Source of the DNA: Candidatus Hermodarchaeota archaeon
Lineage (GTDB): Archaea > Asgardarchaeota > Heimdallarchaeia > Hodarchaeales > Hodarchaeaceae
Assembly: GCA_048886185.1 (NCBI GenBank)
Contig: JBHLKY010000001.1
Location: 180,001-212,000, forward strand
Reading direction: 5' to 3'
DNA: 32,000 nt
The notes beneath the pieces were generated by a model. That model was not told where the DNA came from, searched no databases, and worked only from the letters and a program-made list of their open reading frames with translations. Below, in pieces: positions 1 to 5,524 of the stretch (within the stretch, counting starts at the first letter, position 1; the number at the start of each line of letters is the position of its first letter). The translations under genes were made by a program, and so were the position numbers.

Positions 1-213
1 CGATCCGTCTGGCTTTAATAATCGTACTATTTCAATAATCCATTTTTCAGCCCATTTAAGATAATTTTGAGTGGTAGTGGAATCATCATATATACCATAA
101 TCTTTCTCCAGATTATAAGGAGGATCTGCAAAAGCTAAATCGACTATGCCTGAGGGAAGGTTTTTCATTTCTTCAATGCAATCCCCATTGATAATTCGAT
201 TTTCAAAACTCAT
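1..213 (-). CDS. Beta-class N4-C/N6-A DNA methyltransferase, N-terminal 71 aa; runs off the left edge (not in the ORF track)
   Basis: Manual translation from ATG at 213: MSFENRIINGDCIEEMKNLPSGIVDLAFADPPYNLEKDYGIYDDSTTTQNYLKWAEKWIIEIVRLLKPDGS. It has the GDC motif, the catalytic DPPY (motif IV) near the N-terminus (beta order) and RLLKPDGS. The start overlaps the upstream ORF's stop by 11 nt (ATGAGTTTTGA). Confidence 0.93.
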   Translation of the reverse strand, partial: MSFENRIINGDCIEEMKNLPSGIVDLAFADPPYNLEKDYGIYDDSTTTQNYLKWAEKWIIEIVRLLKPDGS

Positions 214-1123
214 AAGGATTCACTCCATCATAAGGAGCAAGAAGTAGAGTTGATGTAGAGGTGCATGATAAGTCAACTAATCGTTTTAAGACTGAAGAAA
301 GTAGCGGATTTACTGTAATCAGTTGATTAGAAGAAAAATCTGGATGCCAAATGTCTGATAATACCATTCCATTTCTATGTCTAAGGTGTTTTTTTCCGCC
401 ATAATCTTTTAGTGGTTTATTACAAAAGGAGCAAAAACGATATGGTATCCTAACACGATTAATTCTGAATTTTTTAGGAGATTTCACATAATACAAGATA
501 CAATTTGCTTCTGATTTGTATTTTCTTGAAACATCAACATGAGGGATTTCCTCTGAATAAACAATCCAATATTTAAAATAAAGACCTAAATGATTAAGTT
601 TAACACCAAAATAAGGTAAATAACGAGGAATTGAATGGATCAAAACATTTCCATTGGATTTTAGAATCCGTAAAGTCTCCTCTAGGTAGCCATAAACTTC
701 TTTTATAAGTGATGAATTAGAAATGTTATGATATGACGAAGTATCTTGTTTCTCCTTAAATGTAAATTTTGGAAAAAGAATCCACGTATCAACACTTTGA
801 TCCTTAATTTCAGCTAATTTCTTCATTTCAGACGATTGTAATACTATAAAGTTTGATGGAATGATATCCTTAACACTGTCCCTTCTATGTTTACGTGCTA
901 GAAAACGTTCCTTTCCTGCCTCAGGATCCTTAATATTGTAAACTGCCATCAACTCTGATAATTTGAAGAATCCTTTTACCTTTAAGGGATTTTTAAGCTG
1001 TGTTCCATTTTTGTCATACTTTTTTAATAAACCACGTTCTATTTGTAGTCGGATGTTCTCCTCCGCATGATTGGAATAAATCACTGCATCTTTCAATGTT
1101 ATAAAACGATCACGTTTAGGCAT
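203..1123 (-). CDS. HTH-fused, degenerate (likely inactive) beta-class DNA methyltransferase homologue, M.BamHI-like
   Basis: Collinear with beta-class MTases: SVDTWILFPKF (DPPY position), LEETLRILKSNGNVLIHSIP, YFKYWI, ILYYVK, RIPYRFCSFCNKPLKDYGGKKH, LSDIW, LKRLVDLS, LLLAPYDG (DPFxGxG position), then stop. The first ~90 aa resemble an excisionase/MerR-type HTH. Confidence 0.8.
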   Translation of the reverse strand: MPKRDRFITLKDAVIYSNHAEENIRLQIERGLLKKYDKNGTQLKNPLKVKGFFKLSELMAVYNIKDPEAGKERFLARKHRRDSVKDIIPSNFIVLQSSEMKKLAEIKDQSVDTWILFPKFTFKEKQDTSSYHNISNSSLIKEVYGYLEETLRILKSNGNVLIHSIPRYLPYFGVKLNHLGLYFKYWIVYSEEIPHVDVSRKYKSEANCILYYVKSPKKFRINRVRIPYRFCSFCNKPLKDYGGKKHLRHRNGMVLSDIWHPDFSSNQLITVNPLLSSVLKRLVDLSCTSTSTLLLAPYDGVNPYEF

Positions 1124-1238
1124 TCCAATCGAGCTTTTTTGATGATCTAAGAATTATAAGGATTGTGCTTGATATTTTCCCACTGAGAAGTTTTTAACTG
1201 ATTAATTATAGCCTCCTCTTACTTTAGGAGTAACTATT

Positions 1239-2594
1239 ATGGTAAAAACGGAGGTTTTAGTTGTTGGTGGGGGCCCCGCAGGAGTGATTTCAGCCCTAAC
1301 GGCTGCCAAATTAGGCCGAAAAGTGATTTTGATAGATTCTAAATCATATGAAGAAATTGGTAACAAGGTTTGTGGTGATGCGTTAAATCTAGCTCCAGCC
1401 ACATTCTTAGAAGAAAAACTAGGGCTTGAAAAGCCTCATGGTGAAGAGGTTGCCGAAATTGTGGAACATTTAATTTTTATGACTTCCAAAGCTGATTTTC
1501 CAATCCAAGGGGATGGTTATGTATTGAATCGCCATCCATATGGTCAACGGCTCCTAAAGAAAGCTATTGAATATGGTGTTGAAGTTCGTGCAGAAACTAA
1601 AGCAATAAAAGCAATTACTGATGCAGGTTTTGTGAAAGGGGCCGTAGTTCGAGATAAGAGTAAAAAAGAAACATATGAAATTTTTGCAAGCGTAACAATC
1701 GATTGTAGCGGTAGAAACTTCCAAATACGCCGTACTCTCCCAGAAGATGACTTTCCTCTTCTTGAAAAGGAGATGGAGAAACGAGACATCGCTGTTTCTT
1801 ATCGTGAAATTATTAGATTAAAAGAAGAGGATCACCCTTATCAGAATAAGATTTTTTTGATTTATCGTAAGGAAATTCCTGAACCTGGTTATTTCTGGGT
1901 CTTTTCTAAAGGTCCGAAAAGACTCAATGTTGGGATTGGTTGGTTCCTGGAGCCAAGACACAAAGGGATGAAAGATTGCTACCAAGAAGTTTTACATAAA
2001 TATTATTATCCCCCAGGTTCTTATGTTGTAGAAGATAGGGGAGGATACACTATTCCTACTCGTTATCCAATGACAAATGCTGTTGCCTCAGGTTTTTTGA
2101 CCGCAGGTGATGCAGCTTTTCATGTTAATCCATTGTCTGCAGAGGGCCATGGACCAGCACTAACTGCAGGGTATTATGCAGGAAAAGCAGCATCAGAGGC
2201 GATTGAAACGAATGATGTTTCGGAAAAACAGTTATGGAAATATAATATCGATGTCATGAAGCATTTTGGTTTAAGTCATACAAAGACCCAGTTATTTACA
2301 GCCGCTTTACGACGAATCAAGGTTTCTGGAGTAGAATTTCTTCTGCGAAGAAGGATATTAAACAAAGAGCAGTTCATTGAATTGCATGAAGGAAAACAGC
2401 TCAGCTATTTTGATATAGCAAAAATTGCGATTAAATCTTTCCCTCGATATGATATCCTTTTCCAGCTTTCAAAAATCGTCAAGGGAGCACAATTTTTTGA
2501 AAAGTTATTTGCAGAATATCCACATATTCCTGCTGAATACGCAGCTTGGAAGGCTCAATTTGATTCAAAAATGGAACAAATCCGTTCAATTTAG
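1239..2594 (+). CDS. Geranylgeranyl reductase family FAD-dependent oxidoreductase (digeranylgeranylglycerophospholipid reductase-like)
   Basis: VVGGGPAG FAD motif, KVCGDAL, LNRHPYGQRL, IDCSG, PGYFWVF (YxWxF motif), AGDAAFHVNPLSAEG. SD-like AGGAG at 1226-1230. Confidence 0.88.
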   Translation: MVKTEVLVVGGGPAGVISALTAAKLGRKVILIDSKSYEEIGNKVCGDALNLAPATFLEEKLGLEKPHGEEVAEIVEHLIFMTSKADFPIQGDGYVLNRHPYGQRLLKKAIEYGVEVRAETKAIKAITDAGFVKGAVVRDKSKKETYEIFASVTIDCSGRNFQIRRTLPEDDFPLLEKEMEKRDIAVSYREIIRLKEEDHPYQNKIFLIYRKEIPEPGYFWVFSKGPKRLNVGIGWFLEPRHKGMKDCYQEVLHKYYYPPGSYVVEDRGGYTIPTRYPMTNAVASGFLTAGDAAFHVNPLSAEGHGPALTAGYYAGKAASEAIETNDVSEKQLWKYNIDVMKHFGLSHTKTQLFTAALRRIKVSGVEFLLRRRILNKEQFIELHEGKQLSYFDIAKIAIKSFPRYDILFQLSKIVKGAQFFEKLFAEYPHIPAEYAAWKAQFDSKMEQIRSI

Positions 2595-2626: not shown

Positions 2627-5524
2627 TCAATTTGTGGATTTAATTGAGGGTTCTGTAGGTGCTTTAGTTCCTGTTAAATCAAAAATTTCACGCAAATAAG
2701 TACCCGTTGGACATTCAAAATGAGCGATCTCTTCGGGTGTTCCTGTGGCAAGTACTTCCCCTCCATTGTCCCCACCTTCAGGTCCTAATTCTATAATCCA
2801 ATCTGAAGTTTTTATGACATCTAAATTATGTTCTATAACGACAACTGTATTACCTTCTTCAACTAACCTCTGAAGAACAGCTAACAAATAAGATATATCA
2901 TGGGTTGAAAGACCAGTAGTAGGTTCATCTAAAATATAGAAGGTTTTACCTGTCGATCTCTTAGAAAGTTCTTTGGACAATTTAACCCGTTGAGCTTCTC
3001 CTCCTGATAGTGTTGTTGCAGGTTGACCTAGTTGGATGTAACTTAAGCCAACATCAACGATGGTTTGTAATTTATGCTGTATTTTTGGAATATTAGAAAA
3101 GAAGTCAAGGGATTCCTCCACAGTCATGTTCAAGACATCAGAGATGTTTTTTCCTTTATAACGGATCTCTAGTGTCTCTGTGTTATACCGTTTTCCTTTA
3201 CAATCATCACATATAATCCAAACATCCGGTAGAAATGATAGTTCAATCTTGATCTGTCCTCCACCTCTACATGTCTCACAACGTCCCCCCTTCACATTAA
3301 AGCTAAAACGTCCCTGTTTATATCCTCTTATTTTCGCTTCTTTTGTTTGAGCAAATAACGCGCGTATATTATCCCAAACTCCTGTATAAGTTGCAGGATT
3401 GGATCGTGGTGTCCTTCCGATTGGGCTCTGATCAATGTTGATAACTTTATCGACGAATTCTAATCCTTCGAAACTTTCATGTTTACCAACTTTCTCTCGA
3501 GATCTATGAAGATATTTCATAAGCCCTGGATATAGAGTGTCATTCATCAATGTGGATTTTCCTGATCCAGAGACTCCTGTAATGCAAATAAAGCGGCCTA
3601 AAGGAAAACTGACATCAATATTTTTTAGATTGTTTTCCCCAGCTCTTATAATTTTGATACTTTTACCATTGCCAGTCTTCCTATTCTCTGGGATCTTAAT
3701 CTTTTTTCTCCCAGAGAGGTAGGCTCCTGTTGTGGAAGTAGGACAATTCATAATATCTTTAGGCGTTCCCTGAACAACTAATGTACCTCCATGAATTCCT
3801 GGGCCCGGGCCTAAATCTATAACATGGTCAGCTGCTAAAATCGTTTGGTGATCGTGCTCAACAGCAAGGACAGTATTTCCTATAGCCTGAAGGTTCTTCA
3901 AAGAGTCCAATAACTTTTGTTGATCACGAGTGTGTAATCCGATTGAAGGTTCATCTAAAACATAAGTAACACCTACTAAAGCAGAACCAATTTGAGTGGC
4001 TAAACGAATTCTTTGGGATTCCCCTCCTGAGAGAGTCATCGAAGTTCGGTCTAATGTCAAGTAGGGTAATCCTACTGATATGAGGAAATCTAATCGGGAT
4101 TCAATTTCTCTTAAAATATTAGAAGCAATCTTCGAATGAGTCTTTGAAAGTTGAGAACGGAGTTCTCTTATCCAACTTAGGCAATTTTCAACAGTCATTT
4201 CTGTGATTTCAATGATATTTTTATTCTGAATCGTCACGGCTAGCGATTCTGGTTTTAGACGTTTTCCATTACAGCTGGTACAGAAGTCTTGTCTCATAAA
4301 TCGTTCATAATAAGAACGTGCGGTCTCACTTTTGGTTTCTTTGTATCTTCGCCAGATCGTATTTACTGTACCTTCGTGGCGATGTTGTTTGGACTCCCAA
4401 CGACTTTTTTCTGATTCAAAAACAACATTCATTTTCGTTTTTGAGCCATAGAGTAAACTCTCTATCACTTCAGACGGAAGATCTTTTAAAGGTGTATCAA
4501 CTGAGAAATCGTTCCATGATTTTGCTAGAGAAGTATAATAGGCAAATCGCCATGTGCCAGGTGTCAATGGTTTGTCCATAAATCCTCCCTCACGAAATGA
4601 AAGATTCGGATTAGTTATGATTAAACTCGGGTCAATGTTTAAGGTAGTGCCTAATCCCTGACATTCGGGACATGATCCCCAAGGGGAATTAAAACTGAAA
4701 TTTCTAGGTTTTAACTCTTCGTAGGAAAGCTCACAGTCAGGACATGCATAATTTTCACTGAAGAAAAAATCCTCTCCAACTTCAGAGTTATCAATATTTA
4801 TCCTAGTTATTATCACTACTCCTTCTCCAAGTTCGAGAGCTTGTTCTAATGCTTCAATCAAACGATTACGTATGTTAGGTTTAATAACAAGTCGATCGAT
4901 TATTGTTTCTATGGAGTGAAGCTTGTACCGATCAAGCTGAGGAGGATCAGCTAGATCATATTCAATCCCATCAACCCTTACGCGAACAAAACCCAATTCT
5001 GTAAGACGATCCCACTGGGTGTGATGTGTTCCTTTCTTACCTCGAATAATTGGAGCTAGAATCTTAATACGTGTTCCTTCTTTCCATGTAAGTAAAGTTC
5101 TGACAATAGATTGGGGAGTTTGAATTTTTAATTCTTTATTGCAGGAGATACAGTGAGGAATTCCGATGTTAGCAAATAATAAGCGTAAGTAATCAAAAAT
5201 TTCAGTTTGAGTACCAACTGTTGATCGTGGATTCTTACTAGTTGTTTTTTGTTCGATCGAAACAGCTGGAGACAACCCTTCAATAAGCTCTACGTCTGGT
5301 TTTTGCATTCTTTCAAGAAATTGACGGGCATATGCACTTAATGACTCTACATAGCGACGTTGTCCTTCTGCAAAGATCACATCAAACGCTAAGCTTGATT
5401 TTCCTGAACCACTGACCCCAGTAATTACTACAAATTGATTACGAGGGATGGATACTGTTAAATTCCGAAGGTTGTGGACTTTAGCATTTTGTACATAGAT
5501 TACCTCTTTTTCTTTATTTGACAT
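2627..5524 (-). CDS. uvrA: Excinuclease ABC subunit A
   Basis: NAKVHNLRNL, two GVSGSGKS Walker A motifs, EGQRRYVESLS, LSGGESQRIRLA, LDEPSIGLH, PIGRTPRSNPATY, FSFNVKGGRCETC, LSGGEAQRVKL and CxxC zinc sites. Full length (965 aa). Confidence 0.98.
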   Translation of the reverse strand: MSNKEKEVIYVQNAKVHNLRNLTVSIPRNQFVVITGVSGSGKSSLAFDVIFAEGQRRYVESLSAYARQFLERMQKPDVELIEGLSPAVSIEQKTTSKNPRSTVGTQTEIFDYLRLLFANIGIPHCISCNKELKIQTPQSIVRTLLTWKEGTRIKILAPIIRGKKGTHHTQWDRLTELGFVRVRVDGIEYDLADPPQLDRYKLHSIETIIDRLVIKPNIRNRLIEALEQALELGEGVVIITRINIDNSEVGEDFFFSENYACPDCELSYEELKPRNFSFNSPWGSCPECQGLGTTLNIDPSLIITNPNLSFREGGFMDKPLTPGTWRFAYYTSLAKSWNDFSVDTPLKDLPSEVIESLLYGSKTKMNVVFESEKSRWESKQHRHEGTVNTIWRRYKETKSETARSYYERFMRQDFCTSCNGKRLKPESLAVTIQNKNIIEITEMTVENCLSWIRELRSQLSKTHSKIASNILREIESRLDFLISVGLPYLTLDRTSMTLSGGESQRIRLATQIGSALVGVTYVLDEPSIGLHTRDQQKLLDSLKNLQAIGNTVLAVEHDHQTILAADHVIDLGPGPGIHGGTLVVQGTPKDIMNCPTSTTGAYLSGRKKIKIPENRKTGNGKSIKIIRAGENNLKNIDVSFPLGRFICITGVSGSGKSTLMNDTLYPGLMKYLHRSREKVGKHESFEGLEFVDKVINIDQSPIGRTPRSNPATYTGVWDNIRALFAQTKEAKIRGYKQGRFSFNVKGGRCETCRGGGQIKIELSFLPDVWIICDDCKGKRYNTETLEIRYKGKNISDVLNMTVEESLDFFSNIPKIQHKLQTIVDVGLSYIQLGQPATTLSGGEAQRVKLSKELSKRSTGKTFYILDEPTTGLSTHDISYLLAVLQRLVEEGNTVVVIEHNLDVIKTSDWIIELGPEGGDNGGEVLATGTPEEIAHFECPTGTYLREIFDLTGTKAPTEPSIKSTN

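Follow-up and report, generated by a model that had tools for sequence, protein, structure and literature searches.

Two overlapping genes of an Asgard archaeon probably encode the unlike halves of an obligate, pseudo-symmetric heterodimeric orphan DNA amino-methyltransferase (MTase), most likely specific for N6-adenine. Both lie on the reverse strand at the start of the 32,000-nucleotide stretch of DNA analysed here (the window). The upstream gene, P0001 (203..1123), encodes 306 aa comprising an N-terminal helix-turn-helix (HTH)-like domain and a dead, C-terminally truncated domain resembling beta-class MTases. The downstream gene, P0002, encodes an intact beta-class MTase of 266 aa; its first 71 codons occupy 1..213 on the reverse strand, and the whole gene (G000:C1:179413-180213; L002 11413-12213) runs off the window edge. 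An overlap of 11 nt, in which P0001 ends and P0002 begins, had been pointed out in an initial annotation of this DNA; it was confirmed at window 203-213 (reverse strand) and is consistent with translational coupling. Among orthologous pairs the overlap measures 11, 17, about 20-29 or 38 nt.

The MTase-like domain of P0001 spans residues 90-306 (206..856, reverse strand) and has PF01555, M.MboIIA and Foldseek matches. In the PF01555 search that the initial annotation had proposed, P0001 passed by a small margin (29.2 bits, cut-off 26.7, residues 129-265) and P0002 reached 166 bits. The structure model of P0001 has a beta-class MTase fold, with M.MboIIA, M.BceJIV and CcrM as Foldseek matches (E 2e-9 to 7e-9). 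Aligned to M.MboIIA (E 1e-7), P0001 places DTWILFPKF opposite LAVIDPPYN, bearing out the earlier reading that this string stands in for the catalytic loop. Motif IV, (D/N/S)PP(Y/F), is absent; its position is held by FPKF (residues 117-120; 764..775, reverse strand), residues that vary among orthologues. The C-terminus reads LLLAPYDG-VNPYEF*; strand beta1 and what remains of motif I, its degenerate beginning, make up LLLAPYDG (residues 293-300; 224..247, reverse strand). In profile comparisons, active relatives have the DPFxG of motif I at the place of APYDG, and all orthologues end 6 residues past APYDG, both in agreement with the claim that the protein stops at motif I. As the chain stops there, P0001 lacks the glycine loop and strands beta2 and beta3, and with them the SAM-binding motif I (FxGxG) and the motifs II and III after it. 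Judged from its sequence, P0001 can neither bind SAM nor catalyse.

The target-recognition region had been described as the best-preserved part of the protein, and within the MTase-like region of P0001 the CxxC-x4-KDYGGKK...SDIW stretch does rank as the most conserved; its CxxC-x4-KDYGGKK block (residues 231-245; 389..433, reverse strand) is invariant across the family. Active relatives with the same block exist, for example P0054 and P0063. The KDYGGKK loop was modelled poorly (pLDDT <50 at residues 238-255), as expected for a flexible loop, and because of this low model confidence a contact of the CxxC-KDYGGKK loop with DNA is a guess.

Having lost both its catalytic and its SAM-binding motifs, P0001 might be taken for a functionless pseudogene decaying after a tandem duplication. 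The conservation data refute this, and we give it a negligible probability. There are about 38 P0001 orthologues in Asgard archaea (Hodarchaeales-type), equal in length and sharing the lost motifs and the stop; none of the 35 that were aligned has motif IV or extends as far as the glycine loop of motif I. The orthologues are 55-69% identical over their full length, the same-length frame stays open down to 39% identity, and the alignment of 35 sequences holds 50 invariant columns. Moreover, dN/dS of the dead gene is 0.08-0.25, far from 1; the least saturated pair gave dN 0.17, dS 0.94 and omega 0.18, compared with 0.11 for the active gene. The dead domain is also conserved across bacterial and archaeal phyla. 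Close homologues with an intact DPPY or FxGxG, named beforehand as the mark of recent decay, do not occur among the approximately 38 orthologues, and recent decay is rejected by orthologue conservation together with dN/dS. A fused gene split by a frameshift is rejected separately, since all orthologues keep both the stop and a separate start for the partner, with overlaps that vary.

As the initial annotation had stated, the downstream gene has an intact catalytic loop. P0002 carries DPPY (window 115-126, reverse strand), invariant in 13/13 orthologues, together with the motif I sequence DPFLGVGTT; among its sequence matches are M.BceJIV, M.MboIIA and CcrM (E 1e-25 to 1e-29). It also retains a Cys pair homologous to that of the dead protein, only the KDYGGKK loop having been lost; with this pair and all catalytic motifs, P0002 might be functional by itself or as a homodimer. 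The nearest curated family is the PRK11524/YhdJ type (NF008572), to which P0002 scores 156 bits and P0001 41 bits; both fall far below the 292-bit equivalog cut-off and are therefore relatives, not members. The nearest curated and solved relatives (PRK11524/YhdJ-type, M.BceJIV, M.MboIIA and CcrM) are adenine-specific.

A third gene follows P0001 and P0002 in the same operon and encodes an Eco57I/TaqI_C-type (gamma-class adenine) DNA MTase. The operon is separated from a divergent geranylgeranyl-reductase-like gene by an intergenic region (1124..1238), in which its promoter is presumed to lie. The upstream block AATATC..CA.AATCCTTATAATT is common to the two nearest genomes only. Among the listed sequencing runs, no RNA run contains this stretch; DNA runs of sediment metagenomes do, and these are probably the source samples. 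The third MTase gene, the HTH domain, the absence of a nuclease and the Cys pair of the active partner are observations that go beyond the initial annotation.

The two genes stay together. An active partner adjoins or overlaps the P0001 orthologue in every locus with enough flank, and the triplet occupies the same locus in 11/11 genomes forming the subclade in which the neighbouring reductase shares 70% identity or more with the one in this genome. Across 400 Asgard genomes, 17/17 partner-type genes adjoin a dead domain or are fused with one, and 0 occur alone. A wider scan of species-representative genomes recovered a single protein of ~590 aa, in dead-to-active order, in 71 of the best 80 loci, with scan loci from Verrucomicrobiota, Bifidobacterium, Acidobacteriota, Chloroflexota and archaea; fused dead-to-active chains of ~520-640 aa account for 53/146 profile hits. 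Two further split arrangements were seen, in each of which an active gene comes second and overlaps the first; the leading gene encodes either an XRE-HTH joined to the dead domain or the dead domain by itself. The search for conserved pairs or fusions that had been called for was thus positive on both counts. Motif I is present in none of the 93 dead-type domains of the wider family, and the only [DNS]PP[YFWH] string among them is an SPPF in P0154, which lies just before CxxC and not at the motif IV position. Phylogenetically, the dead domains are monophyletic, forming one clade (SH-aLRT 100), and a single clade, with one change of label (SH-aLRT 91), likewise unites their active partners, whether fused or split, in trees that come from 'quick' searches with SH-aLRT support only and include a sample of 'solo active' domains that is biased, having been drawn with the dead-domain profile.

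Modelling of the heterodimer, a check suggested earlier, gave a prediction that passes its controls. The P0001 and P0002 complex reached ipSAE 0.86, 0.87 and 0.86 in three runs, compared with 0.00 for the best of 3 controls; in the benchmark for that ipSAE mark it was reached by 58/80 solved complexes and 2/110 mismatched pairs, counts that hold only roughly because our own alignments were supplied to the complex prediction. Contacts agreed by at least 86% between runs and partner pLDDT was at least 81. The pass may stem from likeness to the solved homodimers M.MboIIA, CcrM and M.BceJIV. From the model we infer that the two proteins bind physically. The pairing of an active with a pseudo-MTase, as first proposed, is supported: all the computational refutation tests named with it were run, and none went against it.

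The predicted heterodimer face is the homodimer face of beta-class MTases, so that P0001 would compete with P0002 self-association. P0001 could on this basis be a dominant-negative paralogue that sequesters P0002 in an inactive heterodimer and limits methylation. We consider this very unlikely. A permanent 1:1 fusion to an inhibitor, conserved across many phyla, would leave the enzyme useless, yet the fused gene is paired with a candidate nuclease in 14/80 of the best loci scanned. Translational coupling, moreover, fixes stoichiometry and does not offer tunable control. Lastly, R143 and R150 of P0002 are invariant in the partner clade only and both fall in the predicted interface, pointing to co-adaptation of the subunits.

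The N-terminal domain of P0001 (residues 1-82; 878..1123, reverse strand) is winged-HTH-like. It is strongly conserved, with N18, E21, E22, N23, I24, R25, G31, K35 and Y36 invariant, and was modelled with pLDDT 81. No Pfam match was obtained at E up to 1. MerR-type folds lead the Foldseek list, although the best match (E 0.034) is not statistically significant; the top folds are CvkR, BldC (TM 0.68) and Pukovnik Xis (TM 0.69), and the Atlas leads are HTH_17/MerR (score 0.78, TM 0.53-0.60). Going by these structural likenesses, the domain is probably of the MerR/Xis (HTH_17, PF12728) type. The predicted interface with P0002 includes no P0001 residue below 128, placing the HTH outside it.

A conserved HTH-like domain that lies outside the interface could also suit a transcription regulator, and P0001 may mainly regulate its operon in the manner of a C-protein, its HTH binding an operator and its MTase-derived domain serving only to dimerise or sense. 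An independent lineage carrying an XRE-type HTH, the classical C-protein fold, on the same dead domain speaks for this, as does an active relative that is fused to LexA. However, the majority of the family, made up of fused chains and bare dead genes, lacks an HTH altogether, and therefore the conserved role of the dead domain cannot be operator binding. Moreover, an alignment of the upstream regions of 7 genomes revealed no conserved palindrome or operator upstream of the operon. We therefore judge a mainly regulatory P0001 to be improbable. The regulator and enzyme-subunit roles of P0001 are mutually compatible.

A variant of the heterodimer that we regard as unlikely gives the dead subunit a larger part. 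Here it would set the methylation site through its HTH and the CxxC-KDYGGKK loop it has retained, and methylation would fall on an extended or bipartite site or be confined to particular loci. The module would be a heritable epigenetic writer of Hodarchaeales that combines active, dead and DNA-binding parts as the eukaryotic MTA1c and METTL3-14 writers do, but has an independent evolutionary origin. In this variant the four invariant cysteines (C231 and C234 of the dead subunit, C141 and C146 of the active one) could together bind zinc at the interface, which would render the dimer obligate.

The initial annotation had also called for the rest of the contig, with a view to the complete active gene and any endonuclease. 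The former was retrieved in full; an endonuclease was not found. No homologue of a candidate nuclease family, A4, was found in the 22 genomes of the genus searched for a cognate endonuclease, the positive control being the genome G143, in which the search found the family beside a fused gene. Family A4 has no match among solved structures and no Pfam family; its motif may resemble the PD..DIK of EcoRV. The genes downstream of the operon differ from genome to genome and have no nuclease Pfam match. As candidates for a hidden nuclease they are rejected, belonging to no nuclease family and not being conserved among genomes. In relatives from outside the genus, a candidate PD..DxK nuclease is present, as is a second DNA MTase. 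With no nuclease, the set would act in this lineage as an orphan (epigenetic) methylation module maintained by vertical descent.

The same lack of a linked nuclease would sit well with a heterodimer that acts on RNA or protein, comparable to Trm61-Trm6 or HemK-type enzymes, and models of tRNA and rRNA MTases give weak matches below threshold. We nevertheless find such a target highly improbable. In both sequence and fold, the closest matches are exclusively DNA MTases (in sequence at the E-values given for P0002), the relatives just described adjoin both the candidate nuclease and the second DNA MTase, an Eco57I/TaqI_C-type DNA MTase shares the operon, and an HTH of DNA-binding type is attached to the dead subunit.

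We therefore return to the heterodimeric DNA MTase as the preferred explanation, in which we also infer the dead subunit's role in DNA recognition, the adenine specificity and the orphan function. P0002 would bind SAM, flip the target base and methylate it. P0001 would be a paralogue that keeps the dimer-forming face and the ancestral CxxC-KDYGGKK recognition loop, with a winged HTH added; it would complete or steer recognition by holding on to flanking DNA or the non-target strand. The pair would hard-wire a division of labour that CcrM and EcoP15I Mod reach with two identical chains. It would descend from a restriction-modification MTase, which elsewhere usually takes the form of one fused dead-plus-active chain.

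Known systems offer partial parallels. In EcoP15I Mod one protomer recognises DNA and the other methylates it. DNA MTases assembled from the products of adjacent or overlapping genes include M.AquI, M.EcoHK31I and the Type I M2S complex; these consist of a split single catalytic domain or make use of a non-MTase specificity subunit, whereas here a whole second MTase-fold paralogue is disabled. CcrM, M.BceJIV and M.MboIIA share the fold and motif order, and both proteins match them best, in sequence as well as in structure. They are homodimers in which both chains are competent, unlike the P0001 chain, which has lost motif IV and motifs I-III, is encoded by a separate gene (or forms a fused domain) and bears an extra HTH. 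In the CcrM dimer, one molecule catalyses, and the other, its active site facing away, binds the non-target strand through its C-terminal domain (PMC6787082). EcoP15I Mod2, the beta-class modification dimer of a Type III system, is described as a dimeric methyltransferase that methylates only one of the two strands (PMC4490356). Mod2 is a homodimer bound to the Res helicase-nuclease, and no Res-type gene occurs at the P0001-P0002 locus; sequence similarity to EcoP15I Mod is marginal (E 9e-5 over 50 residues).

The eukaryotic METTL3-METTL14 and MTA1-MTA9-p1-p2 complexes combine an active paralogue with a required non-catalytic one. The ciliate MTA1c also needs separate DNA-binding proteins (PMC12695648), the same logic as the active, dead and HTH components here. 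Catalytic and non-catalytic paralogues co-occur in P0001-P0002 as they do in MT-A70 heterodimers. However, neither protein matches MT-A70 (PF05063) at E up to 1, MT-A70 folds rank well below bacterial DNA MTases in the Foldseek output, and MT-A70 has been traced to a bacterial donor and not to Asgard archaea (PMC12695648). A role for this pair in the ancestry of the eukaryotic MT-A70 heterodimers is rejected, given the missing PF05063 match and the bacterial origin reported in the literature. The likeness to METTL3-METTL14 is therefore one of analogy, not ancestry, the family being different and MT-A70 bacterial in origin.

In the literature we found no account of a prokaryotic pair of beta-class DNA MTases with one dead and one active member, in a search with most subscription journals and REBASE outside its coverage, and this limited coverage makes the absence no proof of novelty. 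The dead-plus-active arrangement points to an undescribed, hard-wired two-part methylase. The family shows that the asymmetry of beta-class dimers, in which one active site is used, has been fixed by evolution, with a permanent non-catalytic partner present across many bacterial and archaeal phyla as a fused protein or a coupled gene pair. It provides a natural system for studying what a silent protomer contributes, be it recognition, strand separation or stability. For annotation, it means that the ~590-aa proteins labelled 'DNA methyltransferases' in Akkermansia, Bifidobacterium and others contain one catalytic domain, not two, and that the 300-aa Asgard 'DNA methyltransferase' is no enzyme. 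The pair would represent a prokaryotic, DNA-level counterpart of the eukaryotic writers that rely on a pseudoenzyme partner; it occurs in the archaea most closely related to eukaryotes and would have arisen by convergence, not descent.

The window (G000:C1:180001-212000 in the genome copy) starts inside a minus-strand operon of three genes, and the 12 kb upstream were fetched as locus L002 to complete it. The first gene (window 203-1123, minus strand) encodes P0001, a dead methyltransferase (MTase)-like protein of 306 aa. It overlaps by 11 nt the minus-strand gene of its 266-aa partner P0002, which starts at window position 213 and has its remainder in L002, and 15 nt further on lies the minus-strand gene of the 650-aa P0003 (L002:9445-11397, 603-2555 bases before the window start). 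The full-length P0002 is a complete beta-class amino-MTase (PF01555, 166 bits; DPPY and DPFLGVGTT) matching M.BceJIV, M.MboIIA and CcrM at E 1e-25 to 1e-29, which bears out the view of the initial annotation that the downstream gene has an intact catalytic loop. P0003 belongs to the gamma-class MTases of Eco57I/N6_Mtase type; it has NPPY and weakly matches TaqI_C, the Alw26I/Eco31I/Esp3I family and BREX PglX MTases. It follows the pair throughout the main clade and is missing from the divergent pair clade.

Divergent to the operon lies a gene for a geranylgeranyl-reductase-like FAD protein (451 aa, window 1239-2594, plus strand), whose synteny with the MTase triplet is conserved, and beyond it UvrA (965 aa, window 2627-5524, minus strand). 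A paralogue of the reductase, 52% identical, is found on contig 73 (G000:C73:1652-2980). Within window 1124-1200, the block AATATC..CA.AATCCTTATAATT is common to the two nearest genomes (G074 and G068) but missing from those further away, and probably represents a promoter of TATA/BRE type, not an operator. Searched with the YhdJ-type model of beta-class MTases, the whole genome yields 23 matches (C7:136963-137724 and C7:133364-134140 are examples), one of which equals P0002 in strength (E 2.6e-47) with another 3 kb off, and its MTase complement is therefore unusually large.

P0001 passes the PF01555 cut-off narrowly (29.2 against 26.7 bits). Its model has a beta-class fold (pLDDT 77), for which Foldseek returns M.MboIIA (E 2e-9), then M.BceJIV and CcrM. 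When P0001 is aligned with M.MboIIA (E 1e-7), FPKF lies opposite the expected catalytic DPPY (motif IV), and the chain stops six residues past LLLAPYDG, the counterpart of strand beta1 plus the opening residues of the SAM-binding motif I in active relatives. P0001 thus lies, as does P0002, within the beta-class PF01555 superfamily yet fails on both catalytic and SAM-binding grounds. Every element of the arrangement first described, two overlapping genes of which the upstream one has lost DPPY and motif I, is present.

Such losses could also be those of a pseudogene. A database search returned ~38 homologues of 301-343 aa, plus fragments, 39-69% identical to P0001 and, where named, from Hodarchaeota, Heimdallarchaeota, Promethearchaeota and Odinarchaeota MAGs. 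In alignments of 19 and 35 sequences motif IV is missing in all and the same stop (..LLLAP[FY]DGE plus 3-8 residues) occurs in all, with 50 invariant columns; no homologue among those aligned has an intact motif IV or motif I, whereas recent decay would have predicted such homologues. Moreover, pairwise dN/dS of the dead gene is 0.08-0.25 (NG86) and not near 1, these ratios being rough as most dS values exceed 1. The least saturated pair gives dN 0.17, dS 0.94 and omega 0.18, against an omega of 0.11 for the active gene. The dead gene has a dN ~1.5-fold that of its partner. Judged by these sequence comparisons, P0001 is not a product of decay.

The partner is equally constant. An intact partner gene directly follows the dead gene in five contigs retrieved via the protein and at every genome locus whose flank is long enough, with overlaps of 11, 17, about 20-29 or 38 nt among orthologues, and the partner motifs are all invariant in 13/13 orthologues. 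Relatedness, gauged by the divergent reductase gene, divides the genus in two. The three-gene set occupies the same locus in 11/11 genomes whose reductase is at least 70% identical to that of G000. Nine other genomes of the genus are without the set at that locus, two of which have a divergent pair elsewhere (~40% identical, no P0003). A search of 400 Asgard genomes with the partner profile (E 1e-45 or better) found partner-type genes in 17; 12 adjoin a dead gene, including one (G076) broken by contig ends with the partner gene split across two contigs, and 5 are fused to a dead domain, leaving no stand-alone partner-type gene among the 17. The expectation of conserved pairing in other genomes therefore held.

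Fusions, which the initial annotation had suggested seeking, proved common. A dead-family profile run against 1.8 billion cluster representatives gave 471 matches. Dead-type and active-type HMMs were used to segment the best 146 of these, which yielded 53 chains carrying both domains, always in the order dead then active; a further 39 proteins, including many contig fragments, had the dead domain only and 52 the active domain only. Motif I is absent from every dead-type domain segmented among these 146, and their sole [DNS]PP[YFWH] string is SPPF in the related protein P0154, just before CxxC and not at the motif IV position. When each species was represented by a single genome, 277 loci were confirmed, the best 80 comprising 71 fused (typically 570-640 aa), 2 split, 5 cut by contig ends and 2 active only. 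Hosts of these 80 include Verrucomicrobiota (among them Akkermansia muciniphila), Bifidobacterium, Acidobacteriota, Chloroflexota, Armatimonadota and Bacteroidota and, among archaea, Methanoperedens, Micrarchaeota and the Asgard lineages Borrarchaeum, Sifarchaeum and Promethearchaeota. In other split forms an overlapping active gene follows either a dead domain with an XRE-type helix-turn-helix (HTH) or a bare dead gene.

The HTH-like domain of P0001 (residues 1-82; model pLDDT 81) ranks with the best-conserved regions of the protein. It has no Pfam match; in structure it comes closest to winged helices of the MerR type, without statistical significance. Related architectures carry other DNA-binding heads: P0043 (L072:132-1142) joins an XRE-type HTH to a dead domain, and in P0054 (511 aa) the head is a complete LexA (190 bits) and the MTase an active one of CxxC-KDYGGK type. 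A protein of this design might be a controller-type regulator, or a dominant-negative inhibitor of its partner. However, fused forms without an HTH exist, which argues against either as the core role of the family.

In quick trees, with the stand-alone active sample drawn using the dead-domain profile, the dead domains form one clade against the active domains (SH-aLRT 100), within which the HTH-bearing family of the window is a clade (88) sister to the remaining dead domains. A single clade (91) likewise unites the active partners, of which 41 are C-terminal domains of fusions and 13 are split; its sister group is stand-alone active enzymes still bearing CxxC-x4-KDYGGK, the loop of the target-recognition region; having a dead partner is a single change on the tree. 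Therefore, the simplest history is one duplication in a CxxC-KDYGGK-type enzyme, after which one copy would have lost catalysis and kept the loop, and the other would have kept catalysis while its Cys pair widened to CxRxxC and the loop was lost. Either the split or the fused state may have come first.

In four contexts outside the genus, one of them a phage, a conserved PD...D-I-K gene of 216-240 aa is convergent to the fused or split dead/active MTase, and a second MTase of ~410 aa is present in 3/4. Members of this family lie at L037:7683-8384, L038:5434-6084, L039:7418-8080 and L073:6497-7219, all four on the minus strand, and in L075 (G143:C89:2411-3043). Their invariants (YPD ... AIDIK ... 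RLDT ... VKYRxYDGKxRPK) make them a candidate PD-(D/E)xK restriction endonuclease, with what we take to be a resemblance to the EcoRV catalytic motif; neither a Pfam family nor a solved relative was found by sequence. In the phage context (L038, ENA contig k141_142663), portal, Mu F-like, S78 protease and SocA_Panacea genes surround the fused MTase, second MTase and candidate nuclease. The nuclease family occurs at 14 of the best 80 scanned loci. It is absent in 22/22 genomes of the genus, in a search that finds it beside the fused gene of another Asgard genome, and genes downstream of the operon differ between genomes. Therefore, the set reads as an orphan module, at a fixed chromosomal place within its subclade, that appears to derive from a restriction-modification MTase and to have gained an HTH.

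Lastly, the P0001-P0002 complex was predicted with own alignments for both chains. The three runs scored 0.86, 0.87 and 0.86 and the best of three controls 0.00; the mark set by the pair is reached by 58/80 solved complexes and 2/110 mismatched pairs. The pass supports binding, as the heterodimer proposal anticipated, although it may reflect likeness to related enzymes, because their homodimers have been solved. The runs share at least 86% of contacts, with partner pLDDT of at least 81. The predicted interface is pseudo-symmetric (P0001 166-206 and 221-262; P0002 78-119 and 124-165) and takes in invariant P0001 residues P166, P170, Y171, F183 and W186, both Cys pairs and the partner-clade-specific P0002 residues R143 and R150, and no HTH residues. 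P0001 C231 and C234 (CxxC, window 422-433) are homologous to P0002 C141 and C146 (CxRxxC, in L002), and all four are invariant. No consistent third and fourth ligand occurs within either chain across the wider family, and thus a Cys4 zinc site shared between the subunits is possible.

We propose that P0001 and P0002 would form a 1:1 heterodimer resembling the CcrM dimer, in which molecule A catalyses while molecule B has its active site turned from the DNA and its C-terminal domain on the non-target strand (PMC6787082). P0002 would do the chemistry and P0001 would contribute its HTH together with the loop that it retains in the recognition region. The nearest solved and curated relatives, all of them adenine-specific, and the DPPY motif make N6 of adenine the likely target. 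A further rival view is that the pair acts on a non-DNA target. Nearest in logic are the asymmetric homodimers of CcrM and EcoP15I Mod2 and the eukaryotic active/dead pairs METTL3-METTL14 and MTA1-MTA9 with its DNA-binding partners. Both proteins belong to the PF01555 superfamily and not to MT-A70. A review on intrafamily hetero-oligomers of methyltransferases names none from prokaryotes, and our literature search found none either; most subscription journals and REBASE lay outside its coverage, so a prior description is possible.

Taken together, every computational test that the initial annotation proposed supports the reading of the active and dead pair as one enzyme, with binding predicted and DNA recognition something we infer. 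The dead paralogue is under purifying selection, and a strict coupling, often a fusion, ties it to a single clade of active enzymes. This dead-plus-active beta-class DNA MTase architecture is widespread, and the finding is wider than the initial annotation held; the form described here is the split, HTH-bearing, nuclease-free one of a Hodarchaeales-type Asgard archaeon.
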